The position numbers are program-made. A stretch of DNA of 64,000 nucleotides from Escherichia coli (GTDB taxonomy: Bacteria; Pseudomonadota; Gammaproteobacteria; Enterobacterales; Enterobacteriaceae): assembly GCF_041248615.1 (NCBI RefSeq), contig NZ_CP158426.1, one strand, 5' to 3'. Below, piece after piece: positions 32,501-35,215 of the stretch. Position 1 is the stretch's first letter; every line of letters begins with the position of its first letter.

Positions 32501-35215
32501 ACGATGCTCTACAGCGATGCCCTGGATCAACGACTGGCGATGTTTAAATCAGGCAAAAATGGGCCACGCATAAAAGGTAATTATTGATATCAAAGGCCCA
32601 TGGGGATCGGCTGTGGGCCTGTGTTAATTAGTGGTTATTCGCTGCCAGATCGGCTTCGCTTAGCTGGGTGGCTGCGAGCACCAGGTCACGATCAATGCCC
32701 TGTACCAGCATGCGCAAAGCAATTTTAATGGCTTGTTTACGCATACCTTCCTGCAAACCTTCTAATTTACCCTCCTGCCAGCCTTCAAGCTTACCTTCCT
32801 GCCAGCCAATCTGATGCCCTTCCTGCCTCAGCCGTTCAGCAATAGTCATCAATCTCTCCTTTTAATGACAGTTCGGAATATCAGCATCAGTGAGTTGGGT
32901 TGTCGCCAGCACAATCTCACGTTCAAAGCCCTGCTCCAGCATGCGCAAGGCAATTTTAATGGCTTGTTCATGCATGCCTTCCTGCAAACCATCTAATTTA
33001 CCTTCTTGCAAACCTTCTAATTTACCTTCCTGCCAGCCTTCAATCTTACCTTCCTGCCAGCCAATTTGATGCCCTTCCTGCCGCAGCCGTTCAGCAATAG
33101 TCATTAATCTCTCCTTTTGTAGTGGTGAACGTTCGGCAATCTCCTCAATAAAACGGGTGAAACGGGAGGTATCGCCGCATTGCAGCAGATAATTAAACAG
33201 CGTTTGTAGCTGGCTGTCATTAGTGAAGCCTCTAACCAAAAGCGTGGTGATCCTGTCGACCATACCGATTAAATCGCGGTCGCGAATATGCTTTTGAATC
33301 AGTTCAAGCAGAGCTATACGCCGATGTTGCATGATCTCATCGTCAGGTACGATGGTGATATCCACCAACGGAAAAGCTTCGGTGTACAACTGCCGGGCAA
33401 GTTGCGGATCGTCAAACTCATCCAGCCAGTTGAGTGAGTACGGGTAGGGCGAGGTTTCGCCATGATAAAACAGCAATGGCACCACCAGCGGAACTCTGTC
33501 ATAGCCTTTATCCAGGTGACGCTGCATGGCGGCAGTGGCATAGCGCATTAGCCGAAAAGCCATATTCTTTTCTGCAGAGCTTTGATGTTCAATCACGCAG
33601 TAGATATAGCCTTCACCGTCGCTGGTTTCCACAGACCACAAAACATCCGAGTAGTAAGCGCGTAAACTTTTTTCAATAAAGCTGGTGGGTTCCAGGCGTA
33701 AAGTTTGCAGGTTGCAAAGCTTGCGCAGCGGCTCTGGTAGATGTATTTCCAGAAAATCCCGAGCGGTTTCGGGTGTGAACATAAAGGTTTTAAACACCGC
33801 ATCATGCGGGGAGGAGGTTGTTGATTCGGTCATGGTTGTCCGTCACCTGATATTTATGATGACGCGACATTACGGTTATCCCAGGCCTTTGACATCTGCC
33901 AGTTTCAGCCTTTGCGAGACGTTTTCAGAGGAATTTTCACTGCGTTGCAACGCATACATTGGGCACGGAATCGTGTACGCAAAAATGCCCGGTAACAACA
34001 TGCTTACCGGGCATCAGAAAGGAGTTTAAGCCAGCGCCTGGGCCAGCAGCGTAATCGGATGTTCGCAGCGAAGACTTGTGGACATCTCAATCTGCCATTT
34101 GCAGGTTTCGCAGTCGGTAACCACCAGATCTGCGCCGCTTTCTTCTATCTGACGGAACAGTGGTGCGCCGATGGCTTGTGAGGTGGGGTAGTTCTCTTTT
34201 TTGAAACCGTAAGTACCTGCAATACCGCAGCACTGGGAATCCAGCACCGTTAACTCAAGCCCCGGGATTTTACGCAACAGCTCCAGGGTGTAGAGCGTCC
34301 AGCCCATTTTTTCCATATGGCACGGAGTGTGATAAACCACTTTCAGCGGCAGCGGTTTCAGCGGCAAGGTTTTGCCTTCGTCCAGCTTGCGCCACAGCCA
34401 GCGGGTCGCCAGTTCGATGTGATCGCGCAAGCCTTTGTTGTCGACATTCAGCACTTCCGGATATTCGTCGCGCAGGGCAAATGTACAGGTTGAGGAGGTG
34501 GCAATCACCGGAATGCCTTTTACTCCCACTGCTTCGCGGATCGACTCTACATTTGTGATTGCCTGTTTACGTGCTTTATCGGTAAAGCCGTTGGCGATCA
34601 GCGGTACGCCGCAGCATTTTTCTTTGCTGAGCAGTTGTACACCGGTACCCATTGCGTTGAGCACTTTAATTAAATCTTTGCCTAACTGCGGATGGTTGTA
34701 GTTAACGAAGCAGCCGTGAAAGAAAGCCACCTGGTCTTTATATTGTGCCTGCTGGGCTGCCACGCTGCGATACCAGCGACGGAACGTACCGAAGGAGTAT
34801 TTCGGTAGCGTGCGGCGATGATCGATTTTTAACGCCGCATCAAGCAGCTGCCGCACTGGTTTCAGCGAGGTAGCGGTATTGACGATTGGTGCGAATGGCG
34901 TGGAAACGCTACCCATCAGGTCGGTATGACTCAACACAAAATTGCGCAGCGACGGGCGTGTGGTGTCATATTTCGCCCGCGCGCGCTGGATGATATCGCC
35001 AATCTTCACATCGGACGGGCAGGCGACTTCGCAGCGTTTGCAGTTGATGCAATATTTCAGCGCTTCGTCATACAGTGCGCCATCTTTCAGACGCAGACGC
35101 TCGCCATCCGGCCCGGCTTGTTTTGGCCCTGGATAGCCGGGATTCACCCGGCTCACCGGGCAGGCGGTGGTGCAGACGGTGCACTTAATGCAGTTTTCGA
35201 AGCTGGTGTCGTTCA

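Follow-up and report, generated by a model that had tools for sequence, protein, structure and literature searches.

The analysed window, a 64-kb stretch of Escherichia coli DNA, contains the genes glpC, rpnE, ypaA, yfaU and yfaV in this order, and RefSeq uses the name rpnE for the gene in the same neighbourhood. The full-length product of rpnE (RpnE_L) matches the Pfam domain PF04754 (Transposase_31) over residues 8-209 with E = 4.4e-88. It scores 718 bits against the NCBIfam equivalog NF007418 (cut-off 583) and 174 bits against the Rpn family model TIGR01784 (cut-off 52), and the RpnA equivalog stays below its own cut-off. The signature residues of Rpn proteins listed by Kingston et al. (2017), namely D11, D63, E82, Q84 and R94, are kept together with PDDEI. 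The original prediction had labelled this gene rpnB. That label is wrong: the RefSeq neighbourhood, NF007418 and the nomenclature of Kingston et al. (2017), where RpnB is YfcI and RpnE is YfaD, all identify the gene as rpnE (yfaD), and rpnB (yfcI) lies elsewhere. Apart from ypaA, tblastn found no second rpn paralogue in the 64-kb window. By its sequence, the locus appears to belong to the Rpn (YhgA-like) RpnL/RpnS family, since the PF04754 domain, the internal start and the strain-variable repeats are all present.

Table 1. Features of the rpnE-ypaA region, with positions numbered along the window
Feature	Position	Strand	Basis or remark
rpnE (yfaD), full-length ORF, 323 aa (RpnE_L), PD-(D/E)XK nuclease	32862-33833	-	ORF, Pfam, NCBIfam, synteny
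Shine-Dalgarno AAGGAG of rpnE_S	33111-33116	-	6 nt before ATG; upstream ...ACAAAAGGAGAGATTA-ATG
rpnE_S, in-frame internal cistron, 80 aa, MTIAERL...PNCH, putative intragenic antitoxin	32862-33104	-	ATG 33102-33104
rpnE repeat array, 9 xxxG units	32976-33083	-	variable core of 7 units, 32976-33059; TRF, translation, lag scan
Shine-Dalgarno AAGGAG of ypaA	32856-32861	-	adjoins rpnE stop TAA (32862-32864); apparent start of the duplicated block (AAAAGGAGAGATT)
ypaA (rpnE_Ss), 73 aa, separate tandem duplicate of the rpnE_S cistron	32628-32849	-	alignment, tblastn
ypaA repeat array, 7 xxxG units	32745-32828	-	variable core of 5 units, 32745-32804; TRF, translation, lag scan
GC-rich, terminator-like hairpin between convergent yfaU and ypaA	32594-32620	.	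consensus match only; context

Two small cistrons and their repeat arrays

RpnE_S corresponds to the C-terminal 80 residues of RpnE_L. The 46 nt spanning its Shine-Dalgarno sequence and ATG are completely identical to those of K-12, where Ribo-RET peaks and SPA tagging demonstrated that the internal rpnE start is used (PMC10400941; bioRxiv 10.1101/520783). The neighbouring ypaA aligns with the 3' end of rpnE with 84% column identity and a 24-bp gap inside the array, and is retrieved by tblastn with RpnE residues 240-323 as a query (72% identity, E = 9e-31). Expression of YpaA (RpnE_Ss) was demonstrated by Zhong et al. (PMC10400941), and the proteins RpnE_L, RpnE_S and YpaA were seen in vivo in the same study. 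Judging from the sequence comparison, AAAAGGAGAGATT appears to be the sole firm 5' boundary of the duplication. An origin of the rpnE tail (ADIPNCH and the stop) from sequence 5' of the internal Shine-Dalgarno, which would start the duplication about 30 nt earlier, was rejected after strict local alignment gave a non-significant score (reached by 113 of 500 shuffles); a gentler anchored global alignment of the same regions, done post hoc, was marginal (17 of 2000 shuffles).

As for transcription of the short cistrons, the regional number of terminator-like hairpins is no greater than in shuffled sequence. A scan of positions 32500-34100 for a sigma-70 consensus promoter of a short transcript returned none, which is a weak test given that published dRNA-seq data report internal transcription start sites (PMC10400941). 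No RNA genes were detected in the whole window by Rfam (gathering threshold) or ARAGORN.

Both repeat arrays are in frame, and their 24-bp period results from alternating 12-bp units encoding xQEG and KxEG. The core of the rpnE array consists of seven four-residue units (3.5 x 24 bp) and that of ypaA of five (2.5 x 24 bp), and in front of each core stand two degenerate units (RQEG and HQIG). Tandem Repeats Finder delineates a 24-bp array at 32977-33057 in rpnE (3.4 copies, 87% matches) and another at 32744-32807 in ypaA (2.7 copies, 82% matches). Moreover, in a lag-24 self-match the two arrays are the best two places in the 64 kb (52/60 and 45/60 bases), far above the maximum of 31/60 reached in 30 shuffles of the same 64 kb, and hence they cannot be attributed to chance. 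The 12-bp period, by contrast, was discarded as a visible DNA signal: with a lag of 12, the score of the rpnE array is 27/48, the same as the shuffle maximum.

Taken together, translation, Tandem Repeats Finder and the lag scan against shuffles bear out the original prediction of 24-bp repeats, their consensus and their copy numbers (about 3.5 in rpnE and 2.5 in ypaA); its finer coordinates, 33000-33062 and 32760-32811, are displaced by about 15-25 bp relative to the variable cores in Table 1. The 24-bp unit is an accurate description of the DNA of this strain, but not of the protein, in which the period is four residues (12 bp). Likewise, the arrays had been placed in a C-terminal tail, which is insufficient as the sole description: in RpnE_L the repeat sits between the nuclease domain and a C-terminal helical domain, but it also opens the separately translated RpnE_S, beginning at residue 8 (RQEG) or 16 (WQEG), and its duplicate YpaA.

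Variation between strains and stability within lineages

To assess variation of the arrays, we compared the window with 24 other E. coli loci (25 loci in total). The 24 loci have 1, 3, 4, 5, 6, 7 or 9 units in rpnE, and 1, 2, 3, 5 or 7 in ypaA. The changes are always in frame, in multiples of 12 bp, and all 25 rpnE ORFs as well as every ypaA ORF inspected are intact. In an evenly spaced sample of 5,420 genomes the region measures 493-649 bp, varying in 12-bp steps, and it is 601 bp long here. Copy number is thus not invariant, and the predicted length variation extends from 1 to 9 units for rpnE and from 1 to 7 for ypaA. The shortest array is that of K-12, with a single unit. K-12 RpnE was inactive in all assays of Kingston et al. 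(2017), which covered recombination, toxicity and SOS; the protein assayed had this one-unit array and was co-expressed with RpnE_S.

Close relatives differ mostly by 24-bp steps. Written unit by unit, the array of the window reads 'a r a d s t i', that of ST2747 'a r a j a d s t i' and that of NY1601 'a r a j a d i'. These arrays differ by blocks of 24 bp, gained or lost between units that are identical or similar. Unit-by-unit DNA maps also contain hybrid units (v, w), whose breakpoints fall inside GAAGG or GCAGGAAGG direct repeats. These hybrids mark deletions between short direct repeats, and breakpoints in such positions are what slippage or unequal exchange is expected to leave, in agreement with the slipped-strand or recombinational origin proposed originally. 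At the level of units, 25 distinct 12-mers encode just nine peptides (WQEG has five DNA variants and KLEG six) and the xxxG pattern is kept. That so many DNA units collapse to so few peptides argues for purifying selection on the peptide.

Within lineages, the length of the region is constant. A single length was found in six genomes with at least 99.8% identical 3-kb flanks, in three ST2747 assemblies and in the group of 41 genomes from many hosts and countries which share a 2965-bp allele, and all K-12 derivatives are the same. Changes of 24 bp in either direction appear only near 99% flank identity. Since genomes with nearly identical flanks keep their length, the variation is between lineages rather than a fast phase variation, and the idea that copy number would also vary within populations is not supported by these assemblies.

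The rpnE and ypaA counts appear to vary independently among the loci compared, and are unequal in 10 of the 11 distinct two-gene haplotypes. For example, R14 and Ecol_743 are very closely related, their RpnE, YfaU, YfaV and GlpC proteins being identical, and the sole difference is 24 bp in ypaA. There are also single-gene alleles in which rpnE bears a ypaA-type tail, and some synonymous unit variants are common to rpnE and ypaA arrays. The last two observations hint at exchange between the two genes.

Repeat number as a candidate determinant of antitoxin pairing

We consider it probable that the arrays represent the hypervariable four-residue (12-nt) repeat of an Rpn toxin/intragenic-antitoxin system, with one array in rpnE and a second in its downstream partial duplicate ypaA. 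According to this scenario, rpnE would give the long nuclease RpnE_L and, from the internal Shine-Dalgarno and ATG, RpnE_S. The repeat, located 8-16 residues past the internal Met, would lie within the first helix, which by homology to the RpnA_S crystal structure is a likely dimer interface. The number of repeats would then set the length of the RpnE_S surface that binds RpnE_L and, consequently, determine which antitoxin neutralises which toxin. New lengths would be generated only rarely, when 12/24-bp units slip during replication or undergo unequal exchange; exchange of the rpnE array with that of ypaA, or of one allele with another, would probably contribute as well. Once formed, a length would be stably inherited in the lineage. 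Phage pressure presumably drives the diversity of the repeats.

Relatives of RpnE provide the experimental background for this scenario. Zhong et al. reported that the four-residue repeat varies in every E. coli RpnS and RpnSs protein, and suggested that RpnL itself drives the changes in its repeats (PMC10400941). When either RpnC_S or RpnC_LS was given one added repeat, neutralisation was lost unless both carried it; specificity of neutralisation was shown as cognate pairing in RpnA and RpnB, and as dependence on repeat number in RpnC (PMC10400941). RpnE and YpaA presumably obey the same length-matching rule. The inactivity of K-12 RpnE in the assays of Kingston et al. (2017) speaks against a toxin, although K-12 has the shortest array and RpnE_S was co-expressed.

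Structural evidence for the position of the repeat is as follows. A phmmer comparison of RpnE_S with RpnA_S (PDB 7TH0, 49 aa), the representative of the three-helix RpnS fold, gave a weak match (E = 0.16), with colinear stretches at RpnE_S residues 1-13 and 47-76, which suggests that the repeats have been inserted into helix 1 following position 13. In addition, the NCBIfam RpnA model aligned YpaA residues 33-72 to its positions 252-291. An AlphaFold2 model of the RpnE_S monomer, based on a 10-sequence alignment, has a mean pLDDT of 66.7, with helices at 36-57 and 62-69 (pLDDT 76-87) and a non-helical repeat region below 50; for two copies linked by GGGGS x6 the mean pLDDT is 44.5. In the monomer as well as the linked dimer, most of the repeat lacks a continuous helix (pLDDT <50). 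Thus, the picture of a helix that is lengthened by the repeats is neither confirmed nor refuted by these models. A pentatricopeptide repeat (PPR) protein retrieved in the PDB search (5i9h, E = 4e-10) was dismissed as an artefact of summing over repeats, none of its stretches being significant individually.

Alternatively, the arrays could be subject to neutral, minisatellite-like instability, in which the repeat is a flexible linker of arbitrary length, copy number is without function and rpnE is perhaps a decaying paralogue. We regard this as improbable. Such instability would agree with the inactivity of K-12 RpnE in recombination, toxicity and SOS assays, with the apparent independence of the rpnE and ypaA counts, with the low-confidence, non-helical repeat in AlphaFold2 models and with the treatment of ypaA by PGAP, which often calls it a pseudogene fragment. 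However, RpnE retains all catalytic residues, every rpnE ORF (25 of 25) and all ypaA ORFs inspected are intact, and the reduction of 25 DNA variants to nine peptides with a preserved xxxG pattern argues for selection on the peptide. Moreover, all three proteins are found in vivo and an extra repeat does alter the specificity of RpnC (PMC10400941).

Another possibility is a molecular ruler, in which repeat number would set the distance between the nuclease and the C-terminal helical (HTH-like) domain in an RpnE_L dimer and so alter which DNA is cut, either instead of or in addition to antitoxin pairing. The location of the repeat, with the nuclease domain on one side and the helical domain on the other, would suit such a role, and Zhong et al. 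drew a parallel with EcoR124 and noted an HHpred relation to HTH motifs (PMC10400941). Nevertheless, DNA cutting by RpnA has little or no sequence specificity (Kingston et al. 2017), the sole experiment on repeat number, that on RpnC, affected RpnS-RpnL neutralisation (PMC10400941), and ypaA varies alike though it has no nuclease domain, all of which makes the ruler very improbable. Finally, a phase-variable contingency locus, with frequent copy-number switching and mixed phenotypes in a clonal population, is scarcely credible despite the tandem repeats in a defence-type gene and deletion footprints that fit slippage, because the imperfect units (82-87% matches) of 12 or 24 bp always keep the frame, making an on/off switch impossible, all alleles are intact ORFs, and each clonal group (genomes with at least 99.8% identical flanks, ST2747, the 41-genome allele, K-12 derivatives) has one length.

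Returning to the antitoxin-pairing scenario, if the length matching shown for RpnC applies, YpaA would in most cases be unable to block the RpnE_L of its own genome, because the counts mismatch in 10 of 11 haplotypes. One could therefore propose, as an improbable extension, that ypaA is not a redundant spare antitoxin, but maybe a silent donor cassette or an orphan antitoxin or decoy. As a donor, it might serve recombinational switching of the C-terminal module and array of rpnE; alternatively, YpaA might act as an orphan antitoxin or decoy against other RpnE length variants or a phage factor.

Relation to known repeat systems

Glycine at every fourth residue over many units, as in the RpnE repeat, also occurs in the GxxxG repeats of FliH/YscL (Trost and Moore 2009, PMC2674601) and in the GX3 repeats of Yae1_N (PF09811). 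There, too, the number of units differs between organisms and helix-helix association has been proposed, but FliH repeats vary between species, whereas those of rpnE and ypaA vary between strains of one species. On the RpnE repeat, FliH models reached at best E = 1e-8, or 35 bits where the cut-off is 260, and Yae1_N E = 1e-4 (22 bits against 27.5). These sub-threshold hits are explained by the common (xxxG)n periodicity. With scores far under the curated cut-offs, homology was rejected and the likeness was put down to composition and periodicity only.

Simple-sequence repeats in surface genes of Neisseria or Haemophilus underlie high-frequency phase variation. The repeats of rpnE and ypaA resemble those of such contingency loci in that their tandem number changes by slippage, but their units are long, imperfect, in frame and clonally stable, without on/off switching. 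Another parallel is the TAEL repeat in HsdS of the type I restriction enzymes EcoR124I and EcoR124II, where a four-residue repeat in a helical spacer is present in two or three copies and changes the specificity of a defence system. In that case, however, the copies set the spacing of the DNA target, whereas the effect tested in Rpn proteins is the pairing of antitoxin and toxin, and the proteins are unrelated.

The RpnS/RpnL systems (RpnA, RpnC and others; PMC10400941) have the same organisation as rpnE, with a PF04754 nuclease and an internally translated C-terminal small protein. They also have the same strain-variable repeat located 8-20 residues past the internal Met, with a 12-nt/4-aa unit made up of one hydrophobic residue and charged residues or Gly. 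RpnE_S and ypaA (RpnE_Ss) were explicitly included among them, and there is no difference in kind; functional tests concerned RpnA, RpnB, RpnC and RpnP2. The length-variable rpnE/ypaA repeat was therefore already known, being published in 2023 with the locus named as rpnE-ypaA/rpnE_Ss (Zhong et al., PNAS, PMC10400941). The alternating 24-bp double unit, the predominance of 24-bp recent steps and the unequal arrays within a genome may go beyond the main text of that study. To the published picture we add the correction of the gene name, exact coordinates and a 25-locus unit map, in which changes between close relatives mostly amount to 24 bp between direct repeats and are stable in lineages. 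In addition, since the rpnE and ypaA arrays are usually unequal within a genome, the role of YpaA becomes directly testable in the published two-plasmid assay. Should repeat length indeed tune the pairing of antitoxin and nuclease, rpnE, like the other Rpn genes within genes, would represent an unusual route to diversification of phage defence.

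Repeat arrays in rpnE and ypaA

Two ORFs inspected on the minus strand of the window (32600-33850) carry in-frame arrays of 12-bp units encoding xxxG; in both ORFs the array follows a pair of degenerate units, RQEG and HQIG. At a lag of 24, 52/60 and 45/60 bases are identical at the two arrays (shuffle maximum, 31/60), making them the top two such sites in the 64 kb, whereas the lag-12 DNA self-match at the arrays is not above chance. The DNA therefore repeats every 24 bp, by alternation of two unit types, and the peptide every four residues, with glycine at each fourth position. 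The observation is real: the consensus and copy numbers of the original prediction (3.5 and 2.5 × 24 bp) match the 7 and 5 in-frame units, its sub-coordinates being 15-25 bp off. Third in the window by lag-24 self-match (34/60; shuffle maximum, 31/60) is the acidic C-terminal tail of gyrA, apparently low-complexity sequence and not a true tandem repeat.

Features of the locus and other sites in the window
Feature	Position	Strand	Basis
rpnE ORF, 323 aa	32862-33833	-	ORF search
ypaA ORF, 73 aa, directly 3' of rpnE	ATG 32847-32849, stop 32628-32630	-	ORF search
rpnE core array, 7 in-frame units	32976-33059	-	translation
ypaA core array, 5 in-frame units	32745-32804	-	translation
24-bp array, 3.4 copies, 87% matches (also given a 12-bp reading)	32977-33057		Tandem Repeats Finder
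24-bp array, 2.7 copies, 82% matches	32744-32807		Tandem Repeats Finder
gyrA	54453-57080	+	
Lag-24 self-match at gyrA	56965-57105		lag-24 identity
GC-rich hairpin, 10-bp stem	32594-32620		

The large ORF encodes a Transposase_31/YhgA-like PD-(D/E)XK protein (Pfam PF04754, E = 4.4e-88; NCBIfam equivalog NF007418, 718 bits versus a cut-off of 583), in which all RpnA signature residues (D11, D63, E82, Q84, R94, PDDEI) are kept. The label rpnB, under which it was first described, is a misnomer, because RpnB is YfcI and RpnE is YfaD (Kingston et al. 2017); the RefSeq name, rpnE, and the gene order (yfaV, yfaU, ypaA, rpn gene, glpC) agree. Three kb of the window are 100% identical to E. coli KE55 and three other genomes. 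No further rpn paralogue was found within the window.

The DNA beside rpnE is polymorphic, e.g. in SE11 and Res13-Sevr-PER07-33, the latter lacking yfaU and yfaV altogether; many genomes carry a truncated yfaU ('aldolase/citrate lyase family protein, missing N-terminus') that is adjoined by yfaY. This neighbourhood of a recombination-promoting nuclease gene is a deletion hot spot. The hairpin between the convergent stops of yfaU (32587) and ypaA (32628) could be a bidirectional terminator.

The internal cistron rpnE_S and its tandem copy

The repeats are not part of an anonymous tail: the array follows the internal Shine-Dalgarno (SD) sequence and ATG of the small protein RpnE_S. This start codon, in frame at 33102-33104 with AAGGAG 6 nt before it, precedes the first xxxG unit of rpnE by eight residues. 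The surrounding 46 nt are identical in K-12, where this start is used and yields RpnE_S, according to retapamulin ribosome profiling and chromosomal SPA tagging.

ypaA duplicates precisely the rpnE_S cistron, in tandem. Homology begins at AAAAGGAGAGATT, which also provides the TAA stop of rpnE, and extends over array and C-terminal helical domain alike, at 84% column identity and with a single 24-bp gap, inside the array. YpaA protein has been detected and the gene named rpnE_Ss (Zhong et al. 2023, PMC10400941). In most genomes ypaA is a PGAP pseudogene ('hypothetical protein, incomplete, missing N-terminus'), and a few newer records label it 'Rpn/YhgA-type helix-turn-helix domain-containing protein'; despite the pseudogene annotation, it has its own SD, ATG and intact ORF in every two-gene locus looked at.

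The ~26 nt 5' of the two SD sites were also compared (GATATTCCGAACTGTCAT versus GAGATTGCCGAACGTTCACCACTAC; 32850-32880 versus 33105-33135, minus strand). Their anchored global alignment was matched by 17 of 2000 shuffles, and in strict local alignment the similarity upstream of the two SDs was not significant. If it is real, the duplicated block would have begun ~30 nt earlier, and the last codons of rpnE (IPNCH*) would derive from sequence encoding EEIAERSP further upstream.

The RpnA_S crystal sequence (PDB 7TH0, 49 aa) aligns with RpnE_S residues 1-13 and 47-76 in a weak match (E = 0.16), by which the repeats would be inserted into the first helix, after its position 13. That helix forms the dimer interface in the 7TH0 structure, in which RpnA_S is a dimer of three-helix bundle fold (Zhong et al. 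2023, PMC10400941).

Copy number among strains and mode of change

A 601-bp query of the region matched 5,420 of 5,426 complete E. coli genomes, and lengths were surveyed in 60 rows at even steps down the match ranking. Two-gene loci in this sample measured 493 (K-12), 529, 541, 553, 565, 577, 601, 625 or 649 bp, every difference being a multiple of 12, while ~25 of the 60 rows hold a single gene only, with no separate ypaA. Units counted between HQIG and the next M/L-H/R-E/K-Q in 24 loci and the window bear out the predicted difference in copy number (rpnE 1-9, ypaA 1-7); the reading frame is open in every allele counted. The two genes have equal numbers in only one of 11 distinct two-gene haplotypes.

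Core units in two-gene loci
Genome	rpnE	ypaA
Window, KE55, HCP5S3_I2	7	5
K-12, 99-3165	1	2
ECO21	5	5
R14	9	5
Ecol_743	9	7
300033, 042	6	3
E67	6	2
572, MRSN346595	6	1
ECONIH1, EC11	4	2
Eco_24-2013	9	1
ST2747, JNE23-011	9	5
NY1601, AF39	7	HQIG-WQEG lost

Single-gene alleles (O157-like 08-3918, Nissle 1917, Ch1, SE11, Res13) have 1 or 3 units. In the first four, rpnE ends in a ypaA-type tail (...SEADLAANNH); the Res13 (Res13-Sevr-PER07-33) tail differs (...ADLAPLSLQ). The alleles with the ypaA-type tail represent either the pre-duplication state or fusion/deletion between the two copies; such fusions are mentioned by Zhong et al. 2023 (PMC10400941).

We labelled each distinct 12-mer with a letter and compared the resulting variant-repeat maps. 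Within the window's clade, the rpnE maps 'a r a j a d s t i' (ST2747), 'a r a d s t i' (window) and 'a r a j a d i' (NY1601) display two different 24-bp differences, with identical or near-identical units at each boundary. R14 and Ecol_743, whose RpnE, YfaU, YfaV and GlpC protein accessions are identical, differ solely by 24 bp ('s d') in ypaA, and the 24 bp missing from NY1601 ypaA lie between two GCAGGAAGG repeats. The hybrid units AAATTAGAAGGC and TGGCAGGAAGGC join the head of unit d and unit a, respectively, to the last base of unit i, the remnant expected when DNA between GAAGG-type direct repeats is deleted. Slippage or unequal exchange would leave footprints of this kind. Synonymous variants such as c, r and s are found in rpnE or in ypaA depending on the lineage, suggesting exchange between arrays or alleles. 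The 25 DNA unit variants encode nine peptides (WQEG is spelled five ways, KLEG six); thus, the peptide pattern is conserved while the DNA drifts. The post-repeat helical domain is mosaic between alleles as well: K-12 YpaA reads LHEQ...EQGFDRDQ (rpnE-like F, hybrid L-HEQ junction) and window YpaA (32631-32849) MRKQ...VQGIDRDL, a pattern suggestive of gene conversion, either between the two genes or among alleles.

The predicted slippage or recombinational length variation is thus upheld between strains by footprints and lengths, but not as fast switching within populations. Among the 60 best matches to a 3-kb query, all six genomes at ≥99.8% identity have the window's length, and ±24-bp lengths appear only at ~99% flank identity. 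In the same set, length is constant across three separate ST2747 assemblies and likewise across 41 genomes with the 2965-bp allele (humans, poultry, pigs, water and wild birds, many countries). K-12 derivatives are all identical at the locus. Repeat number varies between lineages and, across assemblies with near-identical flanks, shows none of the rapid switching of a contingency locus. Every length change keeps the reading frame, which also leaves no on/off switch.

Likely function and related systems

RpnL proteins act as toxic nucleases and have cognate antitoxins in the RpnS proteins, which are translated internally; a plasmid Rpn system protects against phage (Zhong et al. 2023, PMC10400941). 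One repeat added to RpnC_S or RpnC_LS abolishes neutralisation unless both partners have it (PMC10400941). Most likely, rpnE/ypaA share this mechanism by analogy with the tested proteins: repeat number would set the length of the pairing helix and, through it, toxin-antitoxin specificity. K-12 RpnE, with one unit, was inactive in the assays of Kingston et al. 2017, and AlphaFold2 models of RpnE_S (monomer, and two copies with a flexible linker) are of low confidence, most of the repeat region not being modelled as a continuous helix. Given unequal, apparently independent counts, the length-matching rule implies that YpaA would usually not neutralise resident RpnE_L; it may be a spare antitoxin, a donor for recombination or a decoy.

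Both the phenomenon and the function likely for it have been reported before, and the locus is named in Zhong et al. 2023 (PMC10400941), who left open how 'these dodecamer repeats' expand or contract. Our finding is an independent rediscovery from raw sequence, its residual novelty confined to the unequal rpnE/ypaA counts and the role of YpaA.

Sub-threshold matches of RpnE residues 238-294 and YpaA residues 4-43 to Yae1_N (E = 1e-4) and FliH models (E = 1e-8, 35 bits versus a cut-off of 260) arise because glycine occupies every fourth residue, (xxxG)n. FliH/YscL have variable-number GxxxG repeats thought to mediate helix-helix contacts (PMC2674601); the rpnE/ypaA arrays resemble them in pattern only, with no family membership. 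The classical four-residue repeat whose number alters specificity in a defence protein is TAEL of EcoR124I/II, cited by Zhong et al.
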